A stretch of DNA of 64,000 nt from an uncultured Gammaproteobacteria bacterium (GTDB taxonomy: Bacteria > Patescibacteriota > Patescibacteriia > Magasanikbacterales > UBA922), in the NCBI GenBank assembly GCA_964522435.1, contig CAZFUL010000002.1:44631-108630 (forward strand), written 5' to 3'. Both the position numbers and the translations under genes were made by a program. This document shows positions 3,988-59,196 of the stretch, in pieces; the stretch's first letter is position 1, and the number at the start of each line of letters is the position of its first letter. The notes under the pieces are model-generated. The model was not told the DNA's origin, made no database searches, and worked only from the letters and a program-made list of their open reading frames with translations.

Positions 3988-5370
3988 TTATAAGAAAAAT
4001 TTATCAGCAATAGTATAGATACTGAATATGCCAAAGATGATAAAAATAATCAAGAGAATTGCTTTTCGCCAAAGTTTTGCCTGTACTTCTTTTGGCAGTT
4101 GATGATGATTCATCCAATTTACTAATCCTACATGAACAAACATGGCAACGGCATTAATGATTGCTCCAAGCGTAATAAGAAACCGTGGTTCAGAAATATT
4201 TAATATAAATAACATACAGCCAAATGCAATTTGTGACCAAAGAAAGATATAGTACAGACGAGAAAGATTTACTGTTGGGGTTTGTTGTTTTTCTATTTTT
4301 TTGATAGCCGCATTTTCTGCCATGATGCGACTGGTAGAATCGAGAATTCCCAGTTGTGTTTGAAATAACATGATCATGACCGCGATTAAAAACAGGAGAC
4401 CCACAAAGGGGTGAATGTGTTCTGCGATCATGGCGCCTTCTGCTAACACAAATTGAATGCCTTGCCCCGTCGTGTTTTTGCCATAGGTCGTTGCATAGGA
4501 CAACAGCATAAGTAAGAGCATCGCAACGGCACCCATAAACCAAAAGACAATGAGATGTTCTATATTCACCCGTCTCCACCACACATGAAAGCGAGACAGA
4601 TTTTCTTTGTTGATAGAAAACGTTTTTCCACTCAGTTTTATTTGCTGTGCTTCTTTGCTTCTAAATAAGCCAGAGATTTTTTGTGCATAGGCACCCATGC
4701 CATAGCCTTTTTCTTTAATATAAATAGATTGGGTTAAATTCAAATTGCCTCCTGCTCCAGAATAGGCAAAGGCGGCAAAAAAAGAGGCAAAAGCAATACC
4801 TTCTGGCAGCCAGCGGTATCCGTCTCCATAGCCCAGTAATCCACTACCAAGCGCGGCCCAGTCAGCACCGCTTACAATAATAAGCGCAAGAATAAAAATA
4901 AACGGTACCGCAATAAAAATAATGGTCTGTGTTGTTTTTTCCATGAAATTATAGACGGTTTTTCCTAAACTGAGCATAAGTCCCATAGCAACAAGCATAA
5001 GAATCGCGAGGAAGCGATAATCTTGTATGTGCAAAAGTGACCCAAGCACTTGCGCAGACGCAGCGACAATACCAGGTAAGCCAAAGCCTATAAAAGTAGA
5101 AAGAATAAACCAGTAGGGGGCCAGGCGCCATTGTTTTGCTAAACCAACAAACACACTTTCTCCTTTTACCAGGGCATAGCGTTCAATTTCCATATTCATG
5201 AAAAATTGAAAAGTAATACCCAGTACCGCCCCCCAAGCAATGCCAAGCCCAACGGTTGAGGCTAAATAGGGCCATAAAATAACTTCGCCAGAACCAAGTC
5301 CTAAGGCCAAAATAATAAAACTCGGGCCAAGGAGTTTTTTTAGGGAGAGTGGGGGAGGGAGGGGATTCAT
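3988..5370 (-). CDS. mntH: NRAMP-family divalent metal (Mn2+/Fe2+) transporter, MntH-like
   Basis: About 460-aa polytopic protein. N-terminal LGPSFIILALGLGSGEV and overall NRAMP-like architecture. Start moved to the ATG at MNPLPPP, because the upstream start is TTG. Confidence 0.55.
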   Translation of the reverse strand: MNPLPPPLSLKKLLGPSFIILALGLGSGEVILWPYLASTVGLGIAWGAVLGITFQFFMNMEIERYALVKGESVFVGLAKQWRLAPYWFILSTFIGFGLPGIVAASAQVLGSLLHIQDYRFLAILMLVAMGLMLSLGKTVYNFMEKTTQTIIFIAVPFIFILALIIVSGADWAALGSGLLGYGDGYRWLPEGIAFASFFAAFAYSGAGGNLNLTQSIYIKEKGYGMGAYAQKISGLFRSKEAQQIKLSGKTFSINKENLSRFHVWWRRVNIEHLIVFWFMGAVAMLLLMLLSYATTYGKNTTGQGIQFVLAEGAMIAEHIHPFVGLLFLIAVMIMLFQTQLGILDSTSRIMAENAAIKKIEKQQTPTVNLSRLYYIFLWSQIAFGCMLFILNISEPRFLITLGAIINAVAMFVHVGLVNWMNHHQLPKEVQAKLWRKAILLIIFIIFGIFSIYTIADKFFL

Positions 5371-5392
5371 ATTGAGTATATAAATAGTTGAC

Positions 5393-5404
5393 AACAAGCT
5401 TGTT
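5393..5404. promoter_or_regulatory. Perfect 12-bp palindrome AACAAGCTTGTT in the mntH upstream region. Candidate metalloregulator operator
   Basis: Perfect dyad immediately 3' of a TTGACA box. Flanked by a 10-bp inverted repeat, AGTTGACAAC at 5385-5394 and GTTGTCAACT at 5436-5445. Confidence 0.35.
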
Positions 5405-5468
5405 TATATTCTAGCATACTTTGTCCTTTGGGCCATCTCTGGTTGTCAACTCTATTTTAGAGGGAAAC

Positions 5469-5690
5469 ATGACACAAGACGATTTTCAAAAAAAGTTGGA
5501 CGATCTCAAAAAAAAAGGGTTTACAGATGCGGTCATTTGTCTGACTCAAACATCGATCCATCGAGTTCCTATCTACACTATTCGAGTACGACCAGGGGTA
5601 GTTATCTACCGAGACATCAACATGTCTTTTGGGTCGCAGATCACTATGGCGTATGAAGAAATCATAGATCTGAAAGGATTCAAGTCGTAG
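5469..5690 (+). CDS. Small hypothetical protein (73 aa)
   Basis: GAGGGAAA ribosome-binding site 7 nt upstream of the ATG. Own terminator downstream. No recognisable family. Confidence 0.35.
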   Translation: MTQDDFQKKLDDLKKKGFTDAVICLTQTSIHRVPIYTIRVRPGVVIYRDINMSFGSQITMAYEEIIDLKGFKS

Positions 5691-10594: not shown

Positions 10595-10610
10595 GAATCA
10601 AGTATAATAA

Positions 10611-10707
10611 TCCCTTTACAGCATACAAGGACGAAAGCAACTCGCATAGGGTGCCAGATGCACCCTATGCTGCGACTGCTTTTTTTGCCTGTATGCTGTA
10701 GCGGGAT
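10611..10707. repeat. 97-nt long-hairpin repeat element, copy A
   Basis: Imperfect long hairpin with inner stem GCATAGGGTGC-CAGAT-GCACCCTATGC. A 95%-identical copy lies at 27406-27503. Confidence 0.7.
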
Positions 10708-10734
10708 ATCATATAGCAGTATGATTAAGCCCCC

Positions 10735-11931: not shown

Positions 11932-14175
11932 TTAATTCGGAATATCAAATCGGAGAATACGGTTATTGTCTAAGACAAAGATGCGTTTTGTCTCATAATC
12001 CACAATCATAGATTGAGGAGAAACAAATTGGTCACTCATATATTGGGTAACGAGTGTCCCTTGTTTATCAATAACCACAATACGTTTTTGCTTCGGTTCT
12101 AAAATATAGAGGTAAGGGACATCGTTATAGGTCCATATTTGTGTGGGTTGTTCTAACACGGGGTCAAGGGCCGCAAGAGAAAATGCTTGTTTTTTTCCTG
12201 CAGAAAATTTACTTATCGCTCCCGTTGTTTCAAGAACAAAGATATCCCCATCAATGGTAAAGGAAACCGCATTATCAATAGAAATGCCCTGTTCTTGTAT
12301 CCAGGCCGTCCCTTGGTCATAGCCAGTTTGTGTTTGTGAATGTTTATATATTTGATTGTTGATAGGGTCTAAGCTGTATACCCGTCTATTGTAGACAATA
12401 ATATCCACAATATCACTTTGTTCTTGAGGAAAACGAATATCTTTTTTACTTATCCCTTGTGCCAATTTATCATATTCCGCAATACCATTGTCATTGGTTA
12501 AAAAGACAATTTTATCATGTTCTTTTGGCGTACTTGCTGCGATAAGTTGTTTTGCTGCCTGATCTTGTTTTATTTGTGTCTGCCCGGTTGTGGTGTCAAC
12601 ACTAATATAGTCAGTATATTCTTTATTAAAGGCAATAATGGTGCTATCTATTTGTGCAAAGCCAGTAAGTGTAATACCTTCGGGCGCAGGAAGCGTTGCA
12701 ATCGTTTCTGCACTAACGAATTGTATTTGTCGCAAAGCCAGTAATTGTTCTTCAATAGTAGCAAAAAAGCGTTCTTGTTGAGTTTTTTCTTGATCTGTTT
12801 GTGTCGGTAATTGCTCGGTGATTTGTTTTGCCTCTTGTAATAACGATAGCGCTTTTGCCCGATCTTTATAAATAAGACTTGCTTGTGCTGCGTCTTGTTT
12901 ATCCTGTATTGCTTGTAGTTGTTCTGTGTAGTGCTTTGCGTATGCTTGTGTTGCCTGTTTATGTCGTAACAGTACCATACTGCTGACAAACACCATAACG
13001 AATATAAGGGCGATAAACAAAAGTATTTTACTTATCATTGGGAGGCGCGTAAACCATTGTTTTTTTCTTGAAAGCGATTGTGTATACGAAGAAATAATGC
13101 CAGCGCGACGACCCTTATAATTGCTGAGGAGTATCGCCGTGGTAGAGAGCAGCCGTCCAATAGCAACAGCAATATTTTTTAAGAAAATAAGTAAGGCCGT
13201 GAGTCCCATAAATACCCCCTTGCCTAAGGCAATAAGGACTTGCTCAAGCATAGGACCCGTGGGTTCTTTACGTTCTTTTCTTGGGCGATAATTGGTTGCT
13301 TGCGTTTGTTGAGAGGGCTCTGGAGCATAGGCAGGATCGCTCGGGCGTAAGATGCCGCTAAATTTTTTCTTCGCGTTTCCTAACAGCGGAGGAGATAATA
13401 ATTCTTCAGTATCTCTCTGTCTATTCACAAAACTATTTAACGATTGTTCTGATCCTTTGTCGGTATGCTTTGGCTGTTTTCCGCTTTTAGGAATTTCGTG
13501 TTCAAAGGGACGATAAATGAGTAATCCACCAAATGATTGGGCACTTTTAAGGGAGGCAAGGGTACGTTCAATATGTTCTGTTACTTCGGCGGGTGATCGG
13601 GTAAGAAATAATTTTTCTAAGCGATCCGAAGAAAAATAATTTGCAACAGAAGGAGTAGAAATAAAAATATAATCGCCGGTCGCGACATTGCCTTGGGTAA
13701 CACTATCAAATAGCTGATTGGGGGTGCTTGATTCATTCACCAATCCAATATGTTTCCAGTCTGCATCTTTTTTATAAAAGACTTGTGCTTGGGGATTGCC
13801 GTGGGTAGTAAATACTAATTCTTTTCCACGCACCACGCCAATAAAGGCATGAATCTCGCCGTCCATGGCCAAAATATCTTGGCTCCGGCGATTCATAATT
13901 TCTATCGTACTTTCAAATGGATCTTTTTCATCACTACTTTCTTTTCTATCATAATAGGCACTTTCTATGTCATCAATAATTTGTTGCAGCCCTTGTATTT
14001 GCTGAACAGTTCCTTCTTGAATTTCACAGATAGCAAATAAATAGCCTTTTTTATAGTCTCCCACTTGAGGTTCACTAATATGAAGCAGCACATGAGAGCT
14101 GCGGCTATCCTTTCCTTCAACAAAAAATTCGTATAATTCAAAAATATCACGCATATGGCTTTGACTTAGTGGCAT
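11932..14175 (-). CDS. Large two-domain membrane protein. N-terminal cytoplasmic domain possibly PP2C/SpoIIE-like, a TM region, and a C-terminal extracytoplasmic coiled-coil/beta domain
   Basis: 747 aa. Hydrophobic segments around residues 330-400. N-terminal motifs DGEIHAFIGVV and GDYIFISTPS loosely resemble PPM phosphatases. Confidence 0.45.
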   Translation of the reverse strand: MPLSQSHMRDIFELYEFFVEGKDSRSSHVLLHISEPQVGDYKKGYLFAICEIQEGTVQQIQGLQQIIDDIESAYYDRKESSDEKDPFESTIEIMNRRSQDILAMDGEIHAFIGVVRGKELVFTTHGNPQAQVFYKKDADWKHIGLVNESSTPNQLFDSVTQGNVATGDYIFISTPSVANYFSSDRLEKLFLTRSPAEVTEHIERTLASLKSAQSFGGLLIYRPFEHEIPKSGKQPKHTDKGSEQSLNSFVNRQRDTEELLSPPLLGNAKKKFSGILRPSDPAYAPEPSQQTQATNYRPRKERKEPTGPMLEQVLIALGKGVFMGLTALLIFLKNIAVAIGRLLSTTAILLSNYKGRRAGIISSYTQSLSRKKQWFTRLPMISKILLFIALIFVMVFVSSMVLLRHKQATQAYAKHYTEQLQAIQDKQDAAQASLIYKDRAKALSLLQEAKQITEQLPTQTDQEKTQQERFFATIEEQLLALRQIQFVSAETIATLPAPEGITLTGFAQIDSTIIAFNKEYTDYISVDTTTGQTQIKQDQAAKQLIAASTPKEHDKIVFLTNDNGIAEYDKLAQGISKKDIRFPQEQSDIVDIIVYNRRVYSLDPINNQIYKHSQTQTGYDQGTAWIQEQGISIDNAVSFTIDGDIFVLETTGAISKFSAGKKQAFSLAALDPVLEQPTQIWTYNDVPYLYILEPKQKRIVVIDKQGTLVTQYMSDQFVSPQSMIVDYETKRIFVLDNNRILRFDIPN

Positions 14176-18537: not shown

Positions 18538-19227
18538 CTATCGGGTACTAGCCAACCGATTAGCATCAATATCAATTTTATCAAAAGTGTTAAAAATTTC
18601 TAAAAATAGATTTTCCCAATTTTCATAATGTTGAATATTTTTTTGATGATCGTCTATAATACTAATTATGGGGAGTATCTCACATTTTCCATTTATATTA
18701 ATTCCACTACCGCCTGTACCCCTATAAGCACCTAAATAAAAATTTCCAGTAAAAAATAGTAAAGATGCCGCTTGTATTGAATCAGAATCTTCTCTAGGAT
18801 ACCCAAAACTGGTATGGGCAAATACTTTATGACGAAATTGTATGAATGCCTCTATTTCTTTTTTTCTATTTTCAACATTTATTTTATTAAAAACAATTTT
18901 TATTCCTAGATGAGTTAATGTTTTTATTATTTTTTCATAGCTTCGTTCAAGAATTCTTTCAAGATTATATATAGTATTTAAATAAGAAGTGTAATTAGAT
19001 AAGAATCTTAATTTTCTTTTTTTATATTTTTTTGTATGAGTTTCATCGGAATTTTTGTATTTTTGATAATCTTTTAACTCTCTTTTATATATATCATTGA
19101 GAATACTAATTCCTGTTTGTATAGCATCTATTTCATTATGGAATCCAAAAAATGGTGGTACCTCGATATAGCTGATTTTTTTTGAGTATACGTTGTAAAA
19201 TTTCTTAAACATAAAATGCATCTGCAA
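18538..19227 (-). CDS. Hypothetical protein with a possible HEPN Rx4-6H motif (FRHKVFAH), in the AT-rich island
   Basis: 229 aa, Lys/Asn-rich, encoded by DNA of about 28% GC. Motif RHKVFAH. No other recognisable domain. Confidence 0.4.
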   Translation of the reverse strand: MQMHFMFKKFYNVYSKKISYIEVPPFFGFHNEIDAIQTGISILNDIYKRELKDYQKYKNSDETHTKKYKKRKLRFLSNYTSYLNTIYNLERILERSYEKIIKTLTHLGIKIVFNKINVENRKKEIEAFIQFRHKVFAHTSFGYPREDSDSIQAASLLFFTGNFYLGAYRGTGGSGININGKCEILPIISIIDDHQKNIQHYENWENLFLEIFNTFDKIDIDANRLASTR

Positions 19228-19278
19228 TTTATTCTATATATGTTGTTGGTTTACTTAGAGTGCATTCTTCATTTTTTT

Positions 19279-19998
19279 CTAGAATATCTCCAAATGTATC
19301 TTCTTCCCATCAACTCCTTTTGCCAACAATAACGCACGGGTATCTTTTACCATCTCCGTACTGCCACACAAATAAAAATCTTTGCCAACTGTAGTGGCGG
19401 GCATGTGCGTGGTAACGCGACCAGTGGCTCCTTGCCAACTACTGTCAGTGGCTCCTTGAGAAAGAGTGAGGGTATAGGTAAATGTAGGGTATTGAATACT
19501 CAAGTCCTGTAATTCTTGTTGCCAAAAAATATCTTGTTGATGACGCACCCCAAAAATAAGGTGAATAGGGAAGTCAGACTGTTTGTATATGAGTTCATCA
19601 CGAATAATACTCATGATCGGGGTAATACCTGCGCCCGTGGCAATAGCATCGATCGCACCTGGGTGTGGATGGGTAAAATGCCCCAATGGTCCGCGGACAG
19701 CTACTTTGTCACCAACCGCCATAGCCGCAAAATGTTGAGAGGCTTTGCCTTCGGGGAGTATTTTTACACAAAAGCGTAGTTGGGTATCGTCTGGGGCGCT
19801 GGCCATGGAATAGGATCGTGGAACCGTAGTGCCACCAGCGACGGGAATCATAAATTGCAAAAATTGCCCTGCTACAAACGAAAGAGTGGCTGGTTTTTCA
19901 AAATACAGCTCAATAATATCTTTGGTAAGGAATTCTTTTTTTTCTAAAACAAGTGGAAAAGTAAGCAGTGGCATAGGGTTGACAAAAAATGCAAACAT
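19279..19998 (-). CDS. FAD/NAD(P)-binding oxidoreductase, ferredoxin-NADP reductase-like
   Basis: FAD motif RSYSMAS, GPLG, NAD motif ATGAGITP, C-terminal YLCGSTEMV. Confidence 0.6.
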   Translation of the reverse strand: MFAFFVNPMPLLTFPLVLEKKEFLTKDIIELYFEKPATLSFVAGQFLQFMIPVAGGTTVPRSYSMASAPDDTQLRFCVKILPEGKASQHFAAMAVGDKVAVRGPLGHFTHPHPGAIDAIATGAGITPIMSIIRDELIYKQSDFPIHLIFGVRHQQDIFWQQELQDLSIQYPTFTYTLTLSQGATDSSWQGATGRVTTHMPATTVGKDFYLCGSTEMVKDTRALLLAKGVDGKKIHLEIF

Positions 19999-26045: not shown

Positions 26046-26378
26046 ATGGATGCGCAAACCATCATGAATGAAAATAATAAAAAAGCAGATGAGGCAACAG
26101 ATATTGTTGTACCTGCTGATTTACCAGAATCAATTTCTCAAGGAATTAAAAAAGAGGGGAGAATTCGCCGCATTGTGGTAGACCGCCAAGCCTGTATTGG
26201 GGCTGGGTCTTGTGTTGTGGTCACCGAAAAATTATTTCAACTGGATAAAGAAAATCTTGCGTATGTGGTAGATCCAGATAGTTATGATGATGAAACCGTG
26301 CAACTTTCTGCAGAATCTTGTCCAGTACTCGCGATACTCTTGTACGATAAAGATGGAAATAAAATATTTCCTGAGTAA
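26046..26378 (+). CDS. Ferredoxin (single [4Fe-4S]/[3Fe-4S] cluster type)
   Basis: CIGAGSC ... CP motif. Start trimmed to MDAQTIM. Confidence 0.55.
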   Translation: MDAQTIMNENNKKADEATDIVVPADLPESISQGIKKEGRIRRIVVDRQACIGAGSCVVVTEKLFQLDKENLAYVVDPDSYDDETVQLSAESCPVLAILLYDKDGNKIFPE

Positions 26379-26401
26379 TACCTCTTTTTCAAAAATAAAA
26401 A

Positions 26402-26436
26402 ATCCCTTTACGCGCTTGCGTTGAAGGGATTTTTTA
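26402..26436 (+). terminator. Rho-independent terminator of the suf/ferredoxin operon
   Basis: ATCCCTTTACGCGCTTGCGTTGAAGGGAT followed by TTTTTT. Confidence 0.7.
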
Positions 26437-26516
26437 TTCTCCAGTATTTTTTTGTAAAAAAATGCACTGGGGATGGCACGCAACGGGGTGGGATGTGGTT
26501 GTTGCGTGGTTTCTCC

Positions 26517-27257
26517 TTAGTTGGCGGCGTCAACCCCAGGGTCATCAGCCTCAGCCGCTCGATAATCGGGTGGTGGGTGGCAGACGACGTCCCCTTCTTG
26601 CAAGGGGTAGGGGCCGCCCTCTGCTGCCCCTTCAAACAGGGGCTGATTGAGGCTGTTGTTCCGCAACATCGCGGTGTAGTTGAGGCCGTACACCGCCGCA
26701 TAGCGGCCGAGGGTATCGGGGTCCTCTTCCTTGACGATCCCGTAGAGAAGAGATCCACAGCGCCTTGCGTCTTTGCGCTCGTTGTTGCTGGGTTGCGGCT
26801 TCTCTTCCTCTGGTTCAACGAGCGCTCCGGTCTTTTCATCATAATCTTTGGGGACAAAGTGTCCCAAGACGTCACCCGCTGGGTCGGCGAGCCCGGCGTT
26901 CAGACGCAGGAGCGTGTGTTCGTCTGAATTGTGGTAGATAATAAAACCGGTTGCCACGAAGAGCAAGGATGCTCCGACCTGCCACTTCCAGGGGAGCCGA
27001 GGGAATGTGCCGAGGTACACGATTGCTGCATGTACCGTCACCCCCAGAAAGATGATCCCGCTGAGCATTGGGAAGAAATTCTGGGCGCCAAACACCGCCG
27101 ACCAGGCAGTGCAGAAGATGAGCGTCATCGTTCCCCTGAGGAAGTTCTTCTGGGCTTTGGTAAACGGAGCTGTTTTCTTCAGGGGAGGAGGTTCTTCTTC
27201 GGGAAACTCCTGAGGGGGAGGTTCAGTGGAATCTGCTGGAGTGTATTTTTCTGTCAT
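26517..27257 (-). CDS. Compositionally foreign membrane protein: Pro/Glu-rich N-terminus, three TM helices, C-terminal soluble domain
   Basis: Coding GC about 58-60% against a background of about 40%. Codon bias CTC/CCC/GGG/AGG. Own promoter and a GAAGGAG ribosome-binding site. No family recognised. Confidence 0.55.
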   Translation of the reverse strand: MTEKYTPADSTEPPPQEFPEEEPPPLKKTAPFTKAQKNFLRGTMTLIFCTAWSAVFGAQNFFPMLSGIIFLGVTVHAAIVYLGTFPRLPWKWQVGASLLFVATGFIIYHNSDEHTLLRLNAGLADPAGDVLGHFVPKDYDEKTGALVEPEEEKPQPSNNERKDARRCGSLLYGIVKEEDPDTLGRYAAVYGLNYTAMLRNNSLNQPLFEGAAEGGPYPLQEGDVVCHPPPDYRAAEADDPGVDAAN

Positions 27258-27354
27258 GATGTTTCTCCTTCGGCGCTGAGGGGGGCGCCGAGATCTGTTG
27301 TGTATAGATCATATCCCTCTGTTTACCTCCAGTTAGAGAGAAATACGATGTTCG

Positions 27355-27383
27355 ACCCTAGCGCAGATTGGGGTTTTTGTCAA
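27355..27383 (-). promoter_or_regulatory. sigma70-like promoter for the foreign ORF at 26517-27257, TTGACA-N17-TAGGGT
   Basis: Read on the minus strand. A 5'UTR palindrome TCGGCGC-TGAGGGG-GCGCCGA at 27270-27291 lies between the promoter and the ribosome-binding site. Confidence 0.45.
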
Positions 27384-27405
27384 GCTAGGGGGGATATCCT
27401 AACGA

Positions 27406-27503
27406 TCCCTTTTCAGCATACAAGCACGAAAGCAACTCGCGTAGGGTGCCAGATGCACCCTACGCTGCGACTGCTTTCTTTGCCTGTATGCTGTAGCGGG
27501 ATA
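27406..27503. repeat. 97-nt long-hairpin repeat element, copy B
   Basis: 95% identical to 10611-10707. The inner stem GCGTAGGGTGC-CAGAT-GCACCCTACGC keeps its pairing through compensatory changes. Confidence 0.7.
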
Positions 27504-27540
27504 GGATTAGTTAATTTGTCTTACTTTTTTAGGGAGTATA

Positions 27541-27568
27541 AAAAAGCCCCTATACTATAGGAGCTTTT
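27541..27568 (-). terminator. Rho-independent terminator of clpB
   Basis: AAAAAGCCCCTATACTATAGGAGCTTTT, read on the minus strand. Confidence 0.6.
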
Positions 27569-27585
27569 AATATATATATTGATGC

Positions 27586-30228
27586 CTATTTTTTCTTAAC
27601 CGTAATACTATCCTCTTTAATACTTACTAACACCGTATCATTTTCTTGAATAGTCCCTTCAATAATTTGCAACGCAAGAGGATCGAGGAGTTCTCGTTGA
27701 ATAATGCGCTTCAGTGGACGGGCGCCAAGATGTGGATCAAAGCCTTTTTCTCCCAACCAATCTTTGGCTTTTTTATCAACCGTTAGGGTAATTTTCTTTT
27801 CTTGTAATCGCGCTATTACTGCTGCTATTTGCAAATCAACAATATGGCGAATTTGTTTTTTATCAAGCGGGTGAAACATGATAATGTCATCAATACGATT
27901 CAAAAACTCTGGTTTAAAATGCTCGCGTAAGGTATCCATGAGTTTTTTCTTAATAGTTTCCTCATGATGTTTCATGCCACCTTGGTTATTTTCGCCAAAG
28001 CCAAGTTCACCACTTTTGCCCATGCGCATAATCATCTCAGAGCCCACATTACTCGTCATGATAATAACCGTATTTTTAAAGTTTACTTTTCTTCCTTTGG
28101 CATCAGTTAATTGTCCATCTTCTAAAATTTGCAACATCACATTAAATACTTCTGGATGTGCTTTTTCTATTTCATCAAACAATACCACCGAGTAGGGGCG
28201 ACGACGAATTTTTTCTGTGAGTTGTCCACCTTCTTCATAACCAACATAGCCTGGGGCTGCACCAAACATTTTACTTACCGAATGTTTTTCCATGTATTCA
28301 CTCATGTCCACCCGAACAATGGCGTTTTCATCATTAAATAAAAACGTGGCAAGGGTTTTGGCGAGTTCAGTTTTTCCTACGCCTGTTGGACCCATAAAGA
28401 TAAATGAGCCAATAGGACGTTTTTCTTCAGAAATACCAGCACGAGAACGACGAATCGCATGCGATACGGCAGAAATGGCTTCTTCTTGACCAACCACTCG
28501 GGAAGATAATTCTTCTTCCATGCGAGCAAGTTTTTTGGTTTCACTCTCGAGCATTTTGGATACAGGAATTCCTGTCCAGCGAGAAACAACATTCGCAATA
28601 TCTTCTTCGGTGACTTCTTCTTTCAAAATAGCTCTGCCTTTTTGTACGGCAGTTAATTTTTTTTCTAATTGGGTGATTTCTTTTTCTTTTGCAGGAATTT
28701 GTGCGTAACGAATTTCTGCAACTTTTTGTAAATCACCACGGCGTTCGGTAATTTCTGCTTCTTGTTTTAAGGTATCAATATCTTTTTTTGCGGTACGAAT
28801 ATTGGTAATAATATCTTTTTCATTTTTCCAATGGACTTCTAATTCATTACTTTTTTCTCTGGTGTTTTCTAATTCTTGTTGCAATTTTTGCAAGCGAGAC
28901 TTTGAATCCGCATCATGTTCTTTTTTTAGCGCTTCAATTTCAATTTCTAATTTCATCATGTGGCGTTTCATTCTATCCAAATCATCAGGGAGAGAATCAA
29001 TTTCCATACGCAGGGCCGCGGTTGCTTCATCAACCAAATCAATCGCTTTATCTGGTAAAAAGCGATCAGAAATATAGCGACCAGATAATTCTACTGCCGC
29101 GACAATTGCATTGTCCGTAATGCGTACCCCATGATGCACTTCATATTTTTCTTTAATCCCACGTAAAATGGCAATAGCATCAGATTGCTCTGGTTCTTCT
29201 ACTAATACGGGTTGAAACCGTCGTTCAAACGCCGCATCTTTTTCTATATATTTTTGATATTCTTTCAGCGTCGTTGCGCCCACGGTATGAATTTCTCCAC
29301 GTGCTAAGGCGGGTTTTAACATGTTGCTTGCGTCAATCGCCCCATCACTTGATCCTGCCCCAACAATCGTGTGGAGTTCATCTAAGAATAAGATAATTTT
29401 TCCTTTGGATTCACGGGCTTCTTTGAGGACTGCTTTAAATCGTTCTTCAAATTCACCACGGAATTTTGTTCCGGCAACAAGGGCGCCAATATCTAAACCA
29501 ATCACTTCTTTTTCTTTTAAGGATTCTGGGACATCACCTTTCACAATACGCTGCGCGAGTCCTTCAACAATCGCCGTTTTTCCGACGCCTGGTTCTCCAA
29601 TAAGCACCGGATTATTTTTTGTTCGTCGTGATAACACTTGCATCACCCGGCGGATTTCATCATCACGCCCAATGACTGGATCTAATTGTTCATTACGCGC
29701 GCGCTCAGTAAAATTAATGCCGTATTTTTCTAGTGCTTGATACTTACTTTCTGGCGTTTGTGAATCCACGCGTTGGGAACCACGTACTTGCGCTAATACT
29801 TTTAAGATATCATCGTATTGCACACCTTCGCGTTGTAATGCGTCGCTAATAGGATTTTTTTGTTTTGCATAGGCAAGTAACAAATGTTCCACGCTAATAT
29901 ATTCATCACCCATGCGTTTTGATTCTTCTTGGGCTTGTTGCAACACAAAAAGCATGGCTTGGCCCATAAGCACCTGCCCAAGCCCGCCAGAGATATGACC
30001 AAACTGTTTGGGTAATACATCGATCATTGCCTGCACATCACGTTTAATAGCAATAAGATTGACATCTAATTTTTGTAGTACCGAAATCACCACCCCATCT
30101 TCTTGCTCTAATAGCGCCATAAAGAGGTGAGGAGGCTCTACATGGGGTTGATTATTTTCATGCGCAATATGACTGGCCCGTTGTAACGCTTCTTGAGATT
30201 TATTGGTAAAATTATTTGGGTTAAGCAT
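27586..30228 (-). CDS. clpB: ATP-dependent chaperone ClpB
   Basis: Two AAA+ modules: GEPGVGKT and GPTGVGKT. Middle coiled-coil domain. 880 aa. Confidence 0.9.
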
Positions 30229-35297: not shown

Positions 35298-35343
35298 AGC
35301 TGCACAACTGAACCGGAAGTTCCGGAACGTAAGGAGGGATAGC

Positions 35344-35898
35344 ATGTCAATTAGCTTTGGATTGCGTCGTTTTCTGCAGCAGCTCCGCTACGATGAGCTC
35401 CGGCTGTTCCAACAGTTCACACAGATGGCTGGTACGGGAGATCGCCTGTGTCTGAAAGATATTCCACCGGAGAAGGGAGAAGCGGTGAGCGCCTTCTTTG
35501 CACTGTTGGTGGAACAGGATATCCTCACCCTCGTGAGCGAACAAGGGGCACATGGGAATATCTGGCGTCTCAACCGGCGTTTGTATGACCAGCTGCTTCC
35601 TGCCAGCTACCAGACCCCCAAGGGGATTGTGCTGCTGGTGGCACAGGAATTCCAGCAGCCTGTGGCACATATTTTGGGTCATGAACACCGCAAACCTGCT
35701 GTGTTTGCCACGAAAGTGGTTGCCTGGCTCATGTACAACAATGGCCGGGGCACGACCTCCCAAGCTGATATCGGTAAGGAGCTGAACCGGGCCCAGTCAA
35801 CCGTATGCACCGATATCATCTTCATTGGGCAGGCAATGCTCGAAGATCCGGCGTTCAACGCTCGGGTGATGCGGTTATACGCCCGCATCTACGGCTGA
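35344..35898 (+). CDS. Compositionally foreign putative DNA-binding protein: N-terminal winged-helix-like segment and C-terminal HTH
   Basis: Coding GC about 55% with CTG/GGC/CGC codon bias. C-terminal HTH-like segment TTSQADIGKELNRAQSTVCTDI. Strong ribosome-binding site. Confidence 0.55.
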   Translation: MSISFGLRRFLQQLRYDELRLFQQFTQMAGTGDRLCLKDIPPEKGEAVSAFFALLVEQDILTLVSEQGAHGNIWRLNRRLYDQLLPASYQTPKGIVLLVAQEFQQPVAHILGHEHRKPAVFATKVVAWLMYNNGRGTTSQADIGKELNRAQSTVCTDIIFIGQAMLEDPAFNARVMRLYARIYG

Positions 35899-36035
35899 TT
35901 TTCCCACCTGAAACGAGAGAATCCCACCTTTCAGGGCGGCAATTCTCGTTTCCCAAGACGATGCCACCCAATCTCTGTATATACTCGTATGTATGTAGAG
36001 ATTGGAGAACAACGGCATCGTTTTGTGAAAAAATA

Positions 36036-36068
36036 AAACCCCGACACATGTGTCAGGGTTTTTTAATC
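36036..36068. terminator. Bidirectional rho-independent terminator
   Basis: AAAATAAAA-CCCCGACACATGTGTCAGGG-TTTTTT. Confidence 0.6.
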
Positions 36069-38398: not shown

Positions 38399-38469
38399 TC
38401 GGGGATCGTCTAACGGTAGGACTCTAGGTTTTGGTCCTAGTTATCGGGGTTCGAATCCCTGTCCCCGAG
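38399..38469 (+). tRNA. tRNA-Gln (anticodon UUG)
   Basis: TCGGGGATCGTCTAACGGTAGGACTCTAGGTTTTGGTCCTAG...GGGGTTCGAATCCCTGTCCCCGAG. Anticodon loop TTTTGGT. Confidence 0.7.
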
Positions 38470-38576
38470 CAAAATATAAATACACCCATATGGGTGTATT
38501 TATATTTATGATAGTGAAAGGGATTCGAAGGGCGCGAGAGCCCCGACTAAATGTCGGGGCGGTGCGCAGCGCCCCG

Positions 38577-42574: not shown

Positions 42575-42604
42575 CCCTGCACTAGAACGGTGCAGGGTTT
42601 TTTA
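42575..42604 (+). terminator. Rho-independent terminator of the cop operon
   Basis: CCCTGCAC-TAGAACG-GTGCAGGG followed by TTTTTT. Confidence 0.7.
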
Positions 42605-42713
42605 TCCTGTTTTCATTTTTATGACAACGAAGATTGATACAAATGAAAATGGGCTGGGGGAGAGTCCAGCTCTCCCACCCTCCTATTTTTTTGTGCAGTG
42701 GCTAATCCTGCGG

Positions 42714-43133
42714 CTAGCGGCGGCGCGTGAGTCCGAATTTGAAGAACTCCCACAGAATCGCGCCAAACACGTCATTGTGGATCTGGTGGATCTGCCGGCA
42801 TTCGCCAATCAGTCGCGGATGCGTGATGCTCTCGAAGCCCCGGGGCATCAAGAAGTCATCATCGGCGATGCCCGCCACGATGGCCGCGTCGAAGATGTCG
42901 GTGAACGCCGCTTCTTCCTGGTCGGAAGAAAGCCCCTGAAACAGCCGCTCCCAGGCCGTGAGCGCCTTGGCGCTGCTCCGTGAAAACACCCACGTCCAGA
43001 AGGTTGGTCTCGGCAGCGCGACCCAGCCCGCATCTGTCTTTGCTTGAGTGCTGATTGGAGGTCGCTGTTTCGGGAAGGTGCTGAAGTATTTCACCCTGTC
43101 CCCGTGGTTGATACCTGTGATCAGGAAGATCAT
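42714..43133 (-). CDS. Compositionally foreign small soluble protein (140 aa), unknown function
   Basis: Coding GC about 58%, CTG/GCC/CGC bias. Start MIFLITGINHGDR, preceded by CCAAGGAG. The upstream GTG-extended ORF was trimmed. No family recognised. Confidence 0.5.
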   Translation of the reverse strand: MIFLITGINHGDRVKYFSTFPKQRPPISTQAKTDAGWVALPRPTFWTWVFSRSSAKALTAWERLFQGLSSDQEEAAFTDIFDAAIVAGIADDDFLMPRGFESITHPRLIGECRQIHQIHNDVFGAILWEFFKFGLTRRR

Positions 43134-43174
43134 GCGTTGCTCCTTGGTGGATATGGCAGTATTGCCATGACCGC

Positions 43175-43203
43175 AGTACACAAAAAAAACGAGCTTTTGT
43201 CAA
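43175..43203 (-). promoter_or_regulatory. sigma70-like promoter for the foreign ORF at 43133-42714, TTGACA-N17-TGTACT
   Basis: Read on the minus strand. 5'UTR palindrome ATGGCA-GTAT-TGCCAT at 43153-43168. Immediately upstream is an array of CAATTAACA / TGTTAATTG repeats at 43205-43290. Confidence 0.4.
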
Positions 43204-43280
43204 GCCGAGCAATTAACATTTAACAATTAGCAATTAACAAATTTGTTTATTAATTATGTATCCTAAATCAACATCGTTTG

Positions 43281-48489: not shown

Positions 48490-51400
48490 ATGACAGACGT
48501 GATTAAATTTAGTAAAAAAGCATTTACCTGGTCTGTTGTGCTCATGACAATTTTGTGGAGTATGGGTGTTGCGGCTCTTATGCCAGCATCTGTACAAGCT
48601 GCAGAATGTCCTGCACTTGACCCAGGAACCGACTTTGTTGTACGCGGCGCACGCGCTGTATACAACCTTGATCAAAATTTAGAAAAACGCGCGTACCAAC
48701 ACGAAAAACATTTTCGTATGTGGCGCCGTGGTGAAGGCAATGCCGTTTTCTCTGGCGTTGTAACAATCGACCCAACATGTGCTGATGCATATGATTTACC
48801 AGGCTCATTGCCAATTTGGGTGGGTCCTTTCCCAGGTACTCTTGTTACCCATGAAGAAACACGTAACGTGTACGTTGTTGCTGATGGAAACAAAGCATAC
48901 CGCGTTCCTTCTGAAGAAGTTGCAAAAGCATTTTGGGGATCTAACGTGTTTAAACGCGTTACTACCATCTTGCCTACATACTGGGTAAACTTCTCTATCC
49001 AAGCAACTGATTTTAGTGGAGACGCTCCTGTAGAAGGATCTCTCGTTCGTCGATCTGGCGTTGTATACGTTATGATGGGCGGAAAACTTCACCGTGTAGA
49101 AGGTAGTATGCCAGCTGGTGCATTAGCACAAGCAGTGGACGCTACTGATGCACAATGGACATCTTGGGTTGGTTCAGTAGTTGACCAAGCGGTTACTGCA
49201 GAATCATTAATTTCAAACCCAGGTCGTACAACTGGAAGTTCTACTCCAACTGATCCAAACACACCTCCAGCAAGTAATGCTGCAGTTGCGTTAAGTTTGA
49301 GTGCAAGTACTCCAGCAGGTGGAACTGTTGCTGTTAACGTTGATAACGTTGAATTCACCAAAGTTGTTTTCAAAAACAATGGTAGTGATGCAGCACGCGT
49401 AACATCTGTACGTATTGGCCGTTCTGGACTTGGTCAAGTTGGTGATTTTGAATCAGTTACTTTGTATGATGGTGCTACCAAACTTGGTAATACTCGTACT
49501 TCATGGACTGAAAACAAATACATGAACTACAACATTCCAGAAGGTTGGGTAATCCCAGCAGGTGCATCTAAAGTATTGACCATCAAAGGTCGTTTAGACA
49601 CCGCTGCTACTTACAACGCACTTGGCGTTGAATCTCTTACCCTTTCTGGTGGAGCAGTTTCTGGTCTTCCAGTATTCGGAAACGAAAAATTGGGTGTAGC
49701 AGTAACTGTTGGTGGAGTAACTCTTACTGGTCGTGGTACTGACACACAAACCAAAAAAATTGGAAGCAATGACGTTACTTTAGCAGAATTCCGTTTAGCA
49801 ATGAACTCTGTCGAAGAAGTTGAATTGCAATCAATTACCTTAGAAAACAAAGGAACTGCTAACAATGATGATGTTGCAAACTTACACTTATATCGTGGAT
49901 CTACCAAATTGGCTGGTCCTGCACAAATTAATGCAAACGATCAAGTAAGTTTCGTTCTCTCTGAACCATTACTTATGGAAAAGAGTAAGAACTACGACTT
50001 CAAAGTTGTGGGTGATATCGTTGATGGTATTGATAAAACCGTTGTATTGGTTCTCGATGCATCAACCGATTTAGGAGCTGTTGGTTTAACCTACAAGAGT
50101 AGTGTTTCTGTAACATCAACTGATTTTGATGCAAATGCAGATAATGGAACAACTCAAACCACCATTGATGGTGCTGAGTTAAATATCAGTTTCACTTCAG
50201 TAGCACTTGATACTACTGATGACCGTGATGACGTAGAATTTGGTCGCTTAACCTTAAGCGCTGGATCTACTGATGTTGAAATCTCTACCTTAATCTTTGG
50301 TATTGATGAAGAAAACGGTGATGCTGATGCAACAAATAACGAAGACGTAACTGACTTCGAAATGGTTGACGTTCTTGATGGATCACTTTACAGTGGTACC
50401 ATGACTCTTGGTGGTGACAACGATGCTGACAGTGAATTGTGGACCTTTAGTGATGAATTATACTTGGTTGCTGGTCAACCTCGTACCTTCATCCTTCGTG
50501 GTGACCTTCCTGCAGGCATTGGAGACAACGATTCATATCGTGTTACCTCTACCATCAACACCACAAATGTTGTGGCAGAAACCAAACCAGGAAATGACGC
50601 AGTAGACAACTTCTCTATTGGAAGCTTTACAGGTAAATTAGTTACTGTAAAAGGTGCTGAATTAACTGTTCGCTCAACCAACATGAATGACAGCAACGCT
50701 GTATTCACAGAAGAAGGTGTTGTTCTCTTCAAAGGTTCATTGGAAGCATCTGTTGCAAGTGCACTTGATGTTGACCGTATGAAATTCGAAGGTGCGCATG
50801 AAACTGCAGGTAATACTACAGAAGTAAATGCAAACTTTGATGAAGATAACTGGTCTGAAATCGCACTCTATACCTGGAATAAAACAACTGGTACATGGGT
50901 TCGTCAACAAGCCTTAAATAGTTCAGACTTAGGTGATTCTATTATTGACTTCGATGATCTCGACTTTGAAGTACCAGCTGGTGCTGCAAATCGTGTAGAC
51001 TTTGAAGTTCGTGGTAGTACAAAATCTGTGTTTACTGCAAATACAACTGTTCATATTCAATTGGACACTGTAGAAGCAAATGATACAGATGGAGATGATC
51101 CAACTATCGTAAATACTGCTGGTGTTGCAATTCAAGATCAATTTGAACTTGAAACAACCCGAAGTGTTACCTTGCAAGAAGCTGGTGCGTTACAAATTTC
51201 TATGCGTACCACCGATGCTGGCTTTAACAAAGACCGCATCTTCTTAGCAGGATCTGGTATGTGGGTTGGTAAACTTCGCTTACGCGCATTATACGAAGAT
51301 ATCATGATTGAAGATCTTCGCTTAAAAAATGCAAACGCAGGTGAAGAAGTATCTGTACAAAGTGTCTGTCTCTACAAGAGTACTGTACTTAGTGCAGAAA

Positions 51401-52341
51401 ACCTCGTAGCATGTGCAAGCATGGACGAAAATGACGTGGTAGTATTTGATTCAATCAATGTTACTGTTGCTGAAGGAAGTCAAGATTGGTATATCTACGT
51501 TACCGCTACCCCAATGGGCGACGATGACGGTGATACCGCTGTAACACAAGATGTTATTGAATTACTTGTGGACAGTGCGACAACTGATTACGTTGTTGCT
51601 AAAGGTATCGGATCTAACACCGTTCTTGGTGCTGACGATGGTGACGAGGTAACTGCATCAGGAGAAATTACTTTCGACGCAGATAACGATGGAACCTTTG
51701 ATGAAGCTGGAGATACAACAACAGCAAATAGCAAAGAATTCACTATTGCTGGATCTAAAATTACTGATGTTTCAATGGTTTCATTTATCGGAAACTCACA
51801 ACAACCAGATTTGACGGTTGCTGCAGACATTAGTGGAACCAGTGAACACATTATTGCTATCTTAAAAGTTGAAACTGCTCTCCACAGTAATGAACGTGCA
51901 AATGGTGATGCCTTGAAACTCGCGTTGGACGAATTTATGTTCTACGTAGAAAAACAAGCAAGTACCACAATTAGTGGTGCAACCATTCAACGTTGGAGTG
52001 GGTCTAGTGGTACTGTTGCGTTAACATTAGATGGTGTTGACACTGATGGAGATACTACTGGTACCTTAACCTTAGCAGCGCCTACCTCTAGTTTAGGTGC
52101 TGACGCACAAATTGACGCAGGTCAAACTGCATACTTTGTGATCAAGGGAACCTTTAACGCCTTGAATAATTCTGCAAGCGTTAAAGACTTCATTACTGTT
52201 CGCTTGAACAGTCTTGATACCGCAACCAACAACATTGACTGGGTTGATGGTTACTCAGGATTCTTAGGCACTGCCTTTGAAGAATTGCTCTTAGATAAAA
52301 CAAGTGCTCCAGGTATTCAAGTTGATGAAGACCTTTCATAA
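48490..52341 (+). CDS. Giant secreted surface protein (1283 aa), S-layer-like. Thr/Asp/Gly/Val-rich beta-repeat protein
   Basis: Signal peptide MTDVIKFSKKAFTWSVVLMTILWSMGVAALMPASVQA. The mature protein has no Cys and is acidic with many Asp clusters (Ca-binding-like). A long 5'UTR lies upstream. Confidence 0.6.
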   Translation: MTDVIKFSKKAFTWSVVLMTILWSMGVAALMPASVQAAECPALDPGTDFVVRGARAVYNLDQNLEKRAYQHEKHFRMWRRGEGNAVFSGVVTIDPTCADAYDLPGSLPIWVGPFPGTLVTHEETRNVYVVADGNKAYRVPSEEVAKAFWGSNVFKRVTTILPTYWVNFSIQATDFSGDAPVEGSLVRRSGVVYVMMGGKLHRVEGSMPAGALAQAVDATDAQWTSWVGSVVDQAVTAESLISNPGRTTGSSTPTDPNTPPASNAAVALSLSASTPAGGTVAVNVDNVEFTKVVFKNNGSDAARVTSVRIGRSGLGQVGDFESVTLYDGATKLGNTRTSWTENKYMNYNIPEGWVIPAGASKVLTIKGRLDTAATYNALGVESLTLSGGAVSGLPVFGNEKLGVAVTVGGVTLTGRGTDTQTKKIGSNDVTLAEFRLAMNSVEEVELQSITLENKGTANNDDVANLHLYRGSTKLAGPAQINANDQVSFVLSEPLLMEKSKNYDFKVVGDIVDGIDKTVVLVLDASTDLGAVGLTYKSSVSVTSTDFDANADNGTTQTTIDGAELNISFTSVALDTTDDRDDVEFGRLTLSAGSTDVEISTLIFGIDEENGDADATNNEDVTDFEMVDVLDGSLYSGTMTLGGDNDADSELWTFSDELYLVAGQPRTFILRGDLPAGIGDNDSYRVTSTINTTNVVAETKPGNDAVDNFSIGSFTGKLVTVKGAELTVRSTNMNDSNAVFTEEGVVLFKGSLEASVASALDVDRMKFEGAHETAGNTTEVNANFDEDNWSEIALYTWNKTTGTWVRQQALNSSDLGDSIIDFDDLDFEVPAGAANRVDFEVRGSTKSVFTANTTVHIQLDTVEANDTDGDDPTIVNTAGVAIQDQFELETTRSVTLQEAGALQISMRTTDAGFNKDRIFLAGSGMWVGKLRLRALYEDIMIEDLRLKNANAGEEVSVQSVCLYKSTVLSAENLVACASMDENDVVVFDSINVTVAEGSQDWYIYVTATPMGDDDGDTAVTQDVIELLVDSATTDYVVAKGIGSNTVLGADDGDEVTASGEITFDADNDGTFDEAGDTTTANSKEFTIAGSKITDVSMVSFIGNSQQPDLTVAADISGTSEHIIAILKVETALHSNERANGDALKLALDEFMFYVEKQASTTISGATIQRWSGSSGTVALTLDGVDTDGDTTGTLTLAAPTSSLGADAQIDAGQTAYFVIKGTFNALNNSASVKDFITVRLNSLDTATNNIDWVDGYSGFLGTAFEELLLDKTSAPGIQVDEDLS

Positions 52342-58098: not shown

Positions 58099-59196
58099 AT
58101 GAAAAAAAATGTTTGCCATATTGCCCTGAGACATCCGTTATTTGATACGCGTGTTTTTTTTAAAGAAGCTCTGCCCTTATCACAAGCAGGATACCATATT
58201 ACGATAGTGGCGAAAAAAAGTGAGGGGACGGCCCCCGTAGGGATAGAAGCAATATCCTGTGATTCTTTTTTCACAGGCCTGCGTCTTTTATTGTCAAAAA
58301 AATTTGATGCGTATCATGTACATGATCAGACGTCGTTGCTATTAGGAATTATATTATGTAGCATAAAAAGAACCCCCTTAATTTACGATATTCACGAGCA
58401 TTATTTTTTATTTCCTCGGTTACGACGAGGATGGAAAAAAAGGATATTAAATCTTGTCTATGCCTATATTATTGAACCGCTTGGCATACAGCTCGCGGAT
58501 TTGTGTATAGGGGTAACACCGACGATGCAACGTGTCTATGGAAAAAAATCAAAACGATTTTTATATTTTCCTAATTATTATGTAGGGGAGATGAGCGCAA
58601 CGATGCCTGTAGAAAACAGGGAAGCACCGTTTAAAAATCGATTCGTGTTGTTGTATCAGGGGGGGATGAAACGAGAACGGGGGATATATCAATATATAGA
58701 TATTGTCGATGCGCTTCGGAAGAGCTTTCCGAATATTCTTTTGGCATATATAGGCCCCTTTGATGGTGCAGAAGATAAAGAGCTATTTATGCAGACAATA
58801 GAAAAAAAACAATTACAGGATAGTGTGTGGTATGGAGGGGCACTTCCATTTCAGGATGTGGGGAAATATACCGCACAAGCTGATGTGGGATTAAATTTTT
58901 TAGCAAATTCATTAAATAATAATTTGGGTATCCAAAATAAATTGTTTGAGTATCTGGCACACGGACTTCCTATTTTTTCTTCGGATAATGTTGAGTTTGT
59001 TCGTGATATATTAGTTCCTCAGGGCCTGGCTGTCATTGCGCCGTATGATAATGTTGCTATAAGTGTAACGCGTCTCTCTGAGATGCTCGCACAAAAAGAA
59101 TCGTATGTGCAGTCGGTGATACAGTATCGCGCAGGCTATCAGCAACAGCAGTATATTCCTTCATTAATTGCGGCATATAAAGAGATTGTGGGCTAA
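58099..59196 (+). CDS. Glycosyltransferase family 4
   Basis: GT-B fold. C-terminal NKLFEYLAHGLPIFS region. Start trimmed to MKKNVCHIAL. Confidence 0.65.
   Translation: MKKNVCHIALRHPLFDTRVFFKEALPLSQAGYHITIVAKKSEGTAPVGIEAISCDSFFTGLRLLLSKKFDAYHVHDQTSLLLGIILCSIKRTPLIYDIHEHYFLFPRLRRGWKKRILNLVYAYIIEPLGIQLADLCIGVTPTMQRVYGKKSKRFLYFPNYYVGEMSATMPVENREAPFKNRFVLLYQGGMKRERGIYQYIDIVDALRKSFPNILLAYIGPFDGAEDKELFMQTIEKKQLQDSVWYGGALPFQDVGKYTAQADVGLNFLANSLNNNLGIQNKLFEYLAHGLPIFSSDNVEFVRDILVPQGLAVIAPYDNVAISVTRLSEMLAQKESYVQSVIQYRAGYQQQQYIPSLIAAYKEIVG

Follow-up and report, generated by a model that had tools for sequence, protein, structure and literature searches.

The question raised by ORF A, an open reading frame (ORF) of 246 amino acids (aa) between clpB and the ferredoxin gene, is whether it is a gene at all, where it came from and what its product might do. 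The ORF lies on the minus strand of the window (the whole 64-kb stretch of DNA that was analyzed), inside a sharply bounded stretch of 55-62% guanine plus cytosine (GC) extending from about 26460 to 27400-27500, in a window with an overall GC content of 40.5%. ORF A is very probably a real, if fairly ordinary, horizontally acquired orphan gene, and it is not eukaryote-like. The best explanation of the whole locus is a horizontally acquired, membrane-anchored, possibly cell-wall-binding orphan gene in the clpB-ferredoxin spacer, and this complete reading has a little better than an even chance of being correct. The initial annotation had described a small membrane protein on a foreign cassette with a single gene, a description supported by the deviant GC content, the codon usage and the absence of the cassette from the syntenic site of relatives. 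The ORF itself is present as described there. The NCBI record lists it as P0001, and it forms a singleton cluster. The features that define the locus are the following.

26517 to 27257, minus strand: ORF A, 246 aa, ATG start, with an acidic Pro-rich N-terminus, two to three predicted transmembrane (TM) helices and an acidic 138-aa C-terminal domain
26460 to 27340, no strand: GC-rich foreign islet, its limits set by composition and by the end of similarity to the related locus L163, within about 30 nt
26394 to 26438, no strand: bidirectional AT-rich host terminator, a 15-bp perfect stem between A and T runs, common to the ferredoxin gene (plus strand) and ORF A (minus strand)
27537 to 27582, minus strand: clpB terminator, upstream of the hairpin repeat described below
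27265 to 27270, minus strand: Shine-Dalgarno site AAGGAG, 7 nt 5' of the ATG of ORF A
27271 to 27292, minus strand: small GC-rich stem-loop CGGCGC-N8-GCGCCG in the 5' untranslated region (UTR), abutting the Shine-Dalgarno site

The islet fits exactly between the bidirectional terminator of the ferredoxin gene (26394-26438) and the terminator of clpB (27537-27582). The surrounding window carries housekeeping genes, including dnaE, tsaD, rplJ/L, the suf operon, clpB, GluRS and greA, together with ABC transporters and glycosyltransferases, and the closest ClpB relatives are annotated as Candidatus Magasanikbacteria (Patescibacteria), to which the host is assigned on this basis. Comparison with the loci of such relatives gives the following picture of the junction between clpB and the ferredoxin gene.

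This window: spacer of 1207 bp
L081 (ClpB 85% identical): spacer of 146 bp with two terminators, no islet and no hairpin
L165 (ClpB 79% identical): spacer of 31 bp, no islet and no hairpin
L082, L164 and a 367-kb Joint Genome Institute (JGI) contig (ClpB 79-80% identical): a glutamine-synthetase-like (glnA-like) gene at the junction, in one case together with an 82-aa ORF

The length of the spacer here, compared with those of L081 and L165, identifies the islet as an insertion. The gene order around it is kept in both of these relatives: GluRS-SpoU-WecG and clpB are followed by the convergent genes for ferredoxin, a 2Fe-2S thioredoxin-like protein, a SufT-like protein, SufC and NifU. It is not shared by L001, a ClpB-matched locus among representative genome contigs, where the best ClpB is 68% identical. 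The junction is variable across Magasanikbacteria, since relatives hold either short spacers or the glutamine-synthetase-like gene. Two marks of a horizontally acquired islet are thus found together, the deviation in composition and codon usage and the absence from the syntenic site in L081 and L165.

The deviation extends to the codons of ORF A, whose GC content at the three codon positions is 0.63/0.44/0.65. Its synonymous codon usage differs strongly from that of the host genes (0 of 1000 permutations as extreme). The initial annotation had reported heavy use of CTC, CCC, GGG, AGG and TTC. Such a preference is evident for CTC (13 of 23 Leu codons), CCC (11 of 25 Pro) and GGG (7 of 20 Gly), and is less marked for TTC (6 of 13 Phe) and AGG (just 2 of 9 Arg). 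A preference for CTC, CCC and GGG is normal in moderately GC-rich bacteria. The eukaryote-like signature that had been proposed for these codons does not hold, given the AAGGAG-7 nt-ATG arrangement, the promoter of the sigma-70 type and the rarity of AGG. A eukaryote-derived gene was accordingly rejected as a candidate: a bacterial ribosome-binding site (RBS) and TTGACA-17 nt-TAGGGT are present, and the protein has no homolog in any domain of life.

The window contains two further cassettes of a similar kind, referred to as B and C.

35344 to 35898, plus strand: cassette B, GC-rich, 184 aa, AAGGAGG-6 nt-ATG, within the GC-rich region 35300-36050
42714 to 43133, minus strand: cassette C, GC-rich, 139 aa, AAGGAG-6 nt-ATG and a CTTGACAAAAG promoter, within the GC-rich region 42600-43250

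The three cassettes have a common design, in which one ORF is preceded by a small GC hairpin, AAGGAG(G) and 6-7 nt before the ATG. They are dispersed, at distances of 7-8 kb, and the convergent neighbors are a DUF2238 gene and an unknown gene for cassette B, and copZ-like and greA for cassette C. The codon usage of ORF A had been described as unlike both the host and the other two cassettes; the first part stands, whereas the usage is indistinguishable from that of cassette B (p 0.40) and cassette C (p 0.78). Because of this indistinguishable codon usage, and because all three lie between convergent host genes, A, B and C probably reflect the same kind of acquisition. The second common property is the Shine-Dalgarno site. 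In the whole window, only three ORFs have a Shine-Dalgarno site with a start at their 5' end, and these are the cassettes (27257 minus, 35344 plus and 43133 minus). Of 45 host ORFs that are 150 aa or longer, not one carries any of the motifs GGAG, GAGG and AGGA at a distance of up to 20 nt from the first ATG; a rough estimate puts the number expected by chance at about 5. This confinement to the three cassettes, and the absence from host ORFs, make the Shine-Dalgarno site a donor signature. Several host starts are preceded by pyrimidine tracts, as in clpB (CTCCCCTCCT directly before the ATG).

Both partner cassettes were also considered on their own. The protein of cassette B is a singleton and weakly resembles the C-terminal helix-turn-helix of DnaA (Pfam E-value (E) 1.8e-4, TIGR00362 E 1.2e-4, both below the cut-off). 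In the region of cassette C, the source record annotates a plus-strand ORF, 42621-42983 (P0123), rather than the minus-strand ORF. The real gene looks like the latter, because it has the AAGGAG-6 nt-ATG start and the CTTGACAAAAG promoter. No family matches were found for either of these two ORFs, and searches of viral contigs returned no relatives of cassettes B and C.

The proposed course of events would begin in a more GC-rich, Shine-Dalgarno-using bacterium, or in its mobile elements or phages, from which roughly 0.9-1 kb would have been transferred. This fragment would have landed between clpB and the convergent ferredoxin gene of the suf operon, in what was a short spacer, and the imported part would comprise ORF A with its Shine-Dalgarno site and 5'-UTR hairpin, and a 3' tail of about 55 nt. 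Transcription would depend on a host-lineage promoter that was already located downstream of clpB, with the lineage-specific palindromic element of 104 nt immediately before it. The encoded protein would reside in the membrane, with the Pro-rich acidic N-terminus in the cytoplasm and the 138-aa acidic C-terminal domain outside. There, a divergent LysM-like module may bind peptidoglycan or another glycan, which would make ORF A a membrane-anchored accessory protein that acts at the cell surface or binds the cell wall. Across 125 Patescibacteria genomes, Gios et al. (2025, PMC12455944) described hundreds of islands and single transferred genes. ORF A resembles such islets as a compositionally deviant gene inserted in a streamlined genome of the same superphylum; it differs from them in being without a donor or homolog, in being a single gene of less than 1 kb and in carrying an RBS that the host genes of the window lack.

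The functional part of this scenario depends on two regions of the predicted protein.

26934 to 27137, minus strand: membrane region, residues 41-108, three predicted hydrophobic helices
26559 to 26747, minus strand: LysM-like segment, residues 171-233, YGIV...DTLGRYAAVYGLNYTAMLRNN...LQEGDVVCHP

The acidic, Pro-rich N-terminus of the initial description is found, with PPPQEFPEEEPPPLKK at residues 13-28; a longer N-terminal excerpt reads STEPPPQEFPEEEPPPLKK. Three TM helices had been claimed as well. The topology check returned three hydrophobic segments, at about 41-59, 62-84 and 93-108, of which just the middle one is strongly hydrophobic (Kyte-Doolittle 2.05). AlphaFold2 (AF2), run with no alignment, places helices at 34-57, 61-81 and 90-110 with low confidence. 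The C-terminal region, previously put at about 120 aa, measures 138 aa and is soluble and acidic (26 D/E vs 12 K/R). The K/R residues ahead of TM1 and in the TM2-TM3 loop, together with the acidic C-terminal domain, suggest an N-in, C-out topology.

The orphan status of the protein is observed in every collection that was searched. Only the self-match was returned by an exhaustive HMMER search of 1.84e9 representative proteins and by a word-indexed search of 5.8e9 clusters, and no relative was found among about 15 billion predicted proteins. Profile searches of Pfam, PHROGs, NCBIfam and PADLOC gave nothing significant, with a LysM match below the threshold, in agreement with the earlier statement that no family could be assigned. 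There was no match in phage, plasmid and viral collections, tblastn and blastn included, and nothing among PDB sequences. The PHROGs search listed two faint matches of unknown function (E 0.28 and 0.62).

LysM (PF01476) is the sole family reported by Pfam for the C-terminal 138 aa, at E 0.27 and 11.7 bits, with the gathering threshold of 20.9 bits not reached; the full-length product gives no LysM match at E up to 1. The core of the segment reads LYGIVKEEDPDTLGRYAAVYGLNYTAMLRNN-(17)-LQEGDVVCHP. As in LysM proteins, a D-T-L-x2-[I/Y]-A-x2-Y-G ... L-x3-N core is followed by a G-x-[V/L]-x-x-P strand, and this signature falls in the predicted extracytoplasmic domain. ORF A differs from these proteins in its score (11.7 bits vs the 20.9-bit cut-off), in about 11 additional residues, counted by eye, in the loop between helix 2 and strand 2, and in an atypical first strand, with KEEDPD in place of K-x-GD. 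An hhalign comparison was made with a profile of 7 reference LysM sequences, all of which match Pfam LysM (best E 1.3e-20). It aligned residues 180-205 over 26 columns, with P 1.4e-4 to 3e-4 and a probability of 40-52%. The score of 24.5 was reached by none of 400 composition-matched shuffles of the segment (mean 8.6, maximum 17.4). In control ORF translations amounting to 1.5 million residues, a relaxed pattern of the LysM core had one occurrence; the pattern was drawn after seeing the sequence and carries little weight. In the AF2 model, the segment has two helices where they are expected and no strands, at a predicted local distance difference test score (pLDDT) of 42-46. The fetched related loci contain no LysM domains from which a profile could be built. 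A LysM-like C-terminus with a glycan-binding role is therefore a tentative assignment, placed at or slightly short of an even chance from the sequence of the segment. A possible paralog of the LysM-like region elsewhere in the window was rejected, the tblastn match at 58858-58971, near glycosyltransferase genes, being at chance level (E 0.86).

The same protein could be a foreign orphan with another function, namely a phage "moron"-type membrane protein involved in superinfection exclusion, holin-like activity or anti-phage defense, and not a cell-wall binder. In its favor, ORF A and its signals form a compact unit of promoter, gene and terminator with deviant composition, and the product is a small multi-pass membrane protein that lacks homologs; such units are typical of phage accessory genes. 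The two faint PHROGs matches would also suit this possibility. ORF A shares with morons the single gene placed between a promoter and a terminator, the deviant GC content and the intergenic position that leaves the neighbors undisturbed. The location differs, however, as ORF A is found in a chromosomal housekeeping region (clpB, suf operon, WecG, SpoU, GluRS) with no prophage genes, its promoter apparently belongs to the host lineage and its terminator is the bidirectional one of the host. Phage genes are missing from the vicinity, searches of phage and viral collections and of PADLOC gave no match, and the LysM-like signal favors glycan binding, although LysM is also used by phage proteins. 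A moron-type function is considered unlikely.

A more basic objection to a horizontally acquired gene is that ORF A might be spurious, and the islet non-coding foreign DNA or a structured RNA, as stop codons are scarce in GC-rich sequence. The islet does contain four overlapping long ORFs, those beside ORF A being of 155, 168 and 209 aa, and the frame exactly antisense to ORF A is open for 380 codons with one stop. The lack of a homolog would also fit, as would the folding of the region, which is more stable than that of dinucleotide shuffles on both strands (z -3.9 sense and -2.7 antisense, compared with +1.4 to -1.8 for four host gene segments). Complementary runs of the CCUCC/GGAGG type, resulting from Pro/Glu-rich coding, may contribute to this stability. 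Against a spurious ORF, an open frame of at least 246 codons appeared in just 0.3% of 2000 dinucleotide-preserving shuffles of the islet (p 0.003). The composition at codon position 2 (A.32, C.28, G.15, T.25) is near-identical to that of host genes (.33,.22,.15 and.30 in the same order), and is gene-like on the strand of ORF A only; in the antisense frame it is reversed (G.28, C.15), which is atypical of genes. The antisense frame stays open because ORF A avoids TTA, CTA and TCA (used 0, 0 and 1 times), and antisense ORFs are expected where these codons are avoided. A perfect AAGGAG-7 nt-ATG lies exactly at the start of ORF A, and the hydrophobic segments and charges of the product form a coherent layout. 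An RNA family is not indicated either: with the limit raised to E 10, Rfam gives just weak sub-threshold matches in the region 26300-27650, the best ones on the two terminators; the islet and the hairpin are unmatched, and only tRNAs reach the gathering score in the window. A spurious ORF is thus quite unlikely, and ORF A is very probably a genuine protein-coding gene, judged by these coding signals.

A 10-nt sequence, AAGGAGAAAC (minus strand), is found at both ends of the gene, at 26509-26518, where it overlaps the stop codon, and at 27261-27270, at the Shine-Dalgarno site. About 0.7 such repeats are expected in a region of this size, and the pair is probably a coincidence.

The horizontally acquired gene would also have to be transcribed, which directs attention to the DNA between the islet and clpB.

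27355 to 27384, minus strand: predicted promoter of ORF A, CTTGACAAAAAC (-35), 17-nt spacer and TAGGGT (-10)
27400 to 27503, minus strand: hairpin repeat, copy 2, 104 nt, near-perfect, about 15 nt upstream of the CTTGACAAA of the ORF A promoter
10605 to 10708, minus strand: hairpin repeat, copy 1, about 9 nt upstream of CTTGACAAA in the tRNA-Glu promoter, with no cassette attached

The initial annotation placed a promoter immediately downstream of the repeat. TTGACA-17 nt-TAGGGT is indeed located about 15 nt after the hairpin, with a perfect -35 hexamer (TTGACA, 27383-27378); the -10 hexamer (TAGGGT, 27360-27355) is poor, and the promoter was not listed by a consensus scanner. The sequence CTTGACAAA occurs in 6 copies in the window, compared with 0.97 expected, including those ahead of tRNA-Glu and cassette C, and it is common ahead of rplJ in relatives. 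By this distribution, CTTGACAAA is a host-type extended -35. The composite TTGACA-N17-TAGG[G/T]TCG has just two copies in 1.8 Mb of fetched sequence. The second is found downstream of clpB, at the corresponding position, in L163 (Logan SRR32608987), whose ClpB is 82% identical. Since CTTGACAAA is of the host type and the composite recurs at the syntenic site of L163, we infer that the promoter of ORF A was in place before the insertion and is one of the host lineage. Within the stretch 5345-5620, L163 was also found to carry a 134-nt multi-hairpin GC-rich element (free energy (dG) -85 kcal/mol, z -10.7), which is distinct from the 104-nt hairpin. The promoter CTTGACAAAAAC...TAGGTTCG follows this element, and the contig ends 70 nt further.

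The hairpin repeat beside ORF A, previously given as 97 nt, is 104 nt long and directly upstream, and its two copies are 93% identical, with an A-T to G-C change as the one compensatory pair. Stability is higher on the minus strand, where copy 2 reaches dG -63.6 kcal/mol and z -10.8; the z values of the copies are about -9 to -11. Both copies have the same orientation relative to the downstream CTTGACAAA. A covariance model did not detect the hairpin in 80 related rplJ loci or in five clpB loci of relatives, and its 21-nt core is absent from viral and metagenome contigs. In relatives such as L085, tRNA-Glu is preceded on its strand by CTTGACAAA at a distance of about 43 nt, and the hairpin is absent. 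The spacer from tRNA-Glu to rplJ is 364 nt here; among the 14 relatives in which the tRNA was found, it is 161-341 nt in 10 and 593-1002 nt in 4. By comparison of these loci, the hairpin is a lineage-specific insertion of about 100 nt, because the rplJ and clpB loci of relatives are without it and L085 keeps CTTGACAAA. It is treated here as a palindromic intergenic repeat similar to a miniature inverted-repeat transposable element (MITE) or to ERIC, and it may insulate the promoter from clpB read-through. With ERIC, Correia/CREE and REP-type MITEs it has in common the near-perfect palindrome, the occurrence in more than one intergenic copy, the restriction to a lineage and the position beside promoters. 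It differs from them in that two copies are seen, with no target duplication, and no outward promoter is present inside the 104-nt element, the -35 being outside the conserved part. Several other identities of the hairpin were rejected: repeats of a diversity-generating retroelement, as the differences between the copies are not adenine-specific; a retron, as there is no reverse transcriptase; an attC site, as core sites are missing; and an L10 leader, as the hairpin sits upstream of the rplJ promoter.

The arrangement of the palindrome and the fixed promoter raises the possibility that a mobile system of the cassette type brought in ORF A as its cargo, and that the two elements form a site of capture and expression, integron-like or MITE-mediated. 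Points in favor are that the hairpin abuts cassette A, is lineage-specific and looks inserted at its other site, that L163 has another structured element of 134 nt and the same promoter at the same place before its contig breaks, and that the clpB/ferredoxin junction carries the glnA-like gene in other relatives. ORF A resembles an integron cassette with attC as a single ORF beside an imperfect hairpin of about 100 nt, with the promoter outside the imported ORF. However, no integrase, transposase or phage families were found in window ORFs of at least 150 aa, and there is no cassette array. Neither attC-type core sites (RYYYAAC / GTTRRRY) nor target-site duplications were detected when the flanks of both copies were compared, so the conserved R''/R' sites of integrons are missing; moreover, the hairpin is 5' of ORF A. 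There is no sign that the hairpin mobilizes the cassette, as B and C are without it and copy 1 is without cargo. The cargo explanation is very unlikely. A broader version, very improbable in turn, regards the clpB spacer as a dedicated site, with a palindrome and a TTGACA-N17-TAGG[G/T]TCG host promoter driving interchangeable cassettes, A-C being gained by an undescribed integrase-independent or hairpin-directed acquisition, or being genes translated unlike those of the host. The capture-site idea is based on two loci, one of which (L163) ends early.

A further rival to a horizontally acquired gene is an assembly artefact or contamination, in which a GC-rich kilobase was mis-joined into the contig. 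The assembly is apparently from an uncultured organism, the jump in composition is abrupt and the islet is found in no relative. Yet the conserved host gene order resumes on either side, the islet fits exactly between two intact host terminators and the transcription signals run cleanly over the boundary. The pattern is also seen three times in 64 kb, always between convergent genes, and there is no match in plasmid or vector collections. Such an artefact is most improbable. That the true gene lies on the plus strand (26421-26927 and/or 26931-27560), with ORF A as its antisense shadow, is scarcely credible and already largely refuted: although both of these ORFs are in one frame with a similar GC1/GC3 pattern, and a better-conserved ORF at these positions had been named initially as a reason to doubt ORF A, their translations, searched together, have no homolog at E up to 1, they are unannotated in the source record, their position 2 is G-rich and C-poor (.28/.15), they extend across both flanking terminators and the hairpin repeat, and they have no Shine-Dalgarno site at any sensible start.

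Several observations weigh against the preferred reading of a horizontally acquired, membrane-anchored and possibly cell-wall-binding protein. The source is a metagenome-type contig, whose junctions are known from the assembly alone. No donor was found for ORF A by protein and DNA searches, including phage, plasmid and viral collections. As the protein has no homologs, selection is not supported by conservation or by the ratio of nonsynonymous to synonymous substitution rates (dN/dS), and the stable folding of the region on both strands is not typical of the host gene segments compared. Expression is predicted from sequence signals alone, the TAGGGT -10 box is weak, and translation of ORF A would be uncertain if the host is truly without Shine-Dalgarno-led initiation. 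TM1 and TM3 are weakly hydrophobic, the AF2 single-sequence models of the full protein and of the C-terminal 89 aa are uninformative (pLDDT 42-46), and the LysM match is below the Pfam threshold and spans the two-helix core only.

Orphan genes of deviant composition are common, including in metagenomes, and the ORF A protein alone is of modest interest, its sole clue being the faint LysM-like core. The particular features of the case are the lack of any relative, the limitation of Shine-Dalgarno sites to imports, and the host promoter with an upstream structured element common to the relative L163. If the reading of a horizontally acquired surface protein is true, ORF A would represent a clean, datable case of an ultra-small streamlined bacterium gaining surface functions: a foreign gene on less than 1 kb of DNA settles where it does no harm, in the spacer of two convergent genes, and comes under the control of a promoter that the host already had. 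Recent imports in such genomes could then be recognized by a simple sequence marker, as the cassettes are led by Shine-Dalgarno sites and the host genes are not, and the same contrast raises the question of how imported genes are translated.

Further observations concern other parts of the window. Three large host ORFs have no Pfam family at E up to 0.001: 11932-14175 (minus, 747 aa), 48490-52341 (plus, 1283 aa) and 3988-5370 (minus, 460 aa). An AT-rich island at 18546-19363 has a GC content down to 0.19 and contains the ORF 18538-19221 (minus), with a third-position GC content (GC3) of 0.16 and a faint similarity to HEPN_AbiU2 (E 0.006, below the cut-off). This ORF may be another foreign gene, of the opposite compositional bias. 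A 40-nt inverted repeat at 38450-38529 comprises the 3' end of tRNA-Gln (38399-38470) and, in the sequence that follows, a partial copy of this tRNA 3' end in inverted orientation; it might mark an old integration site.

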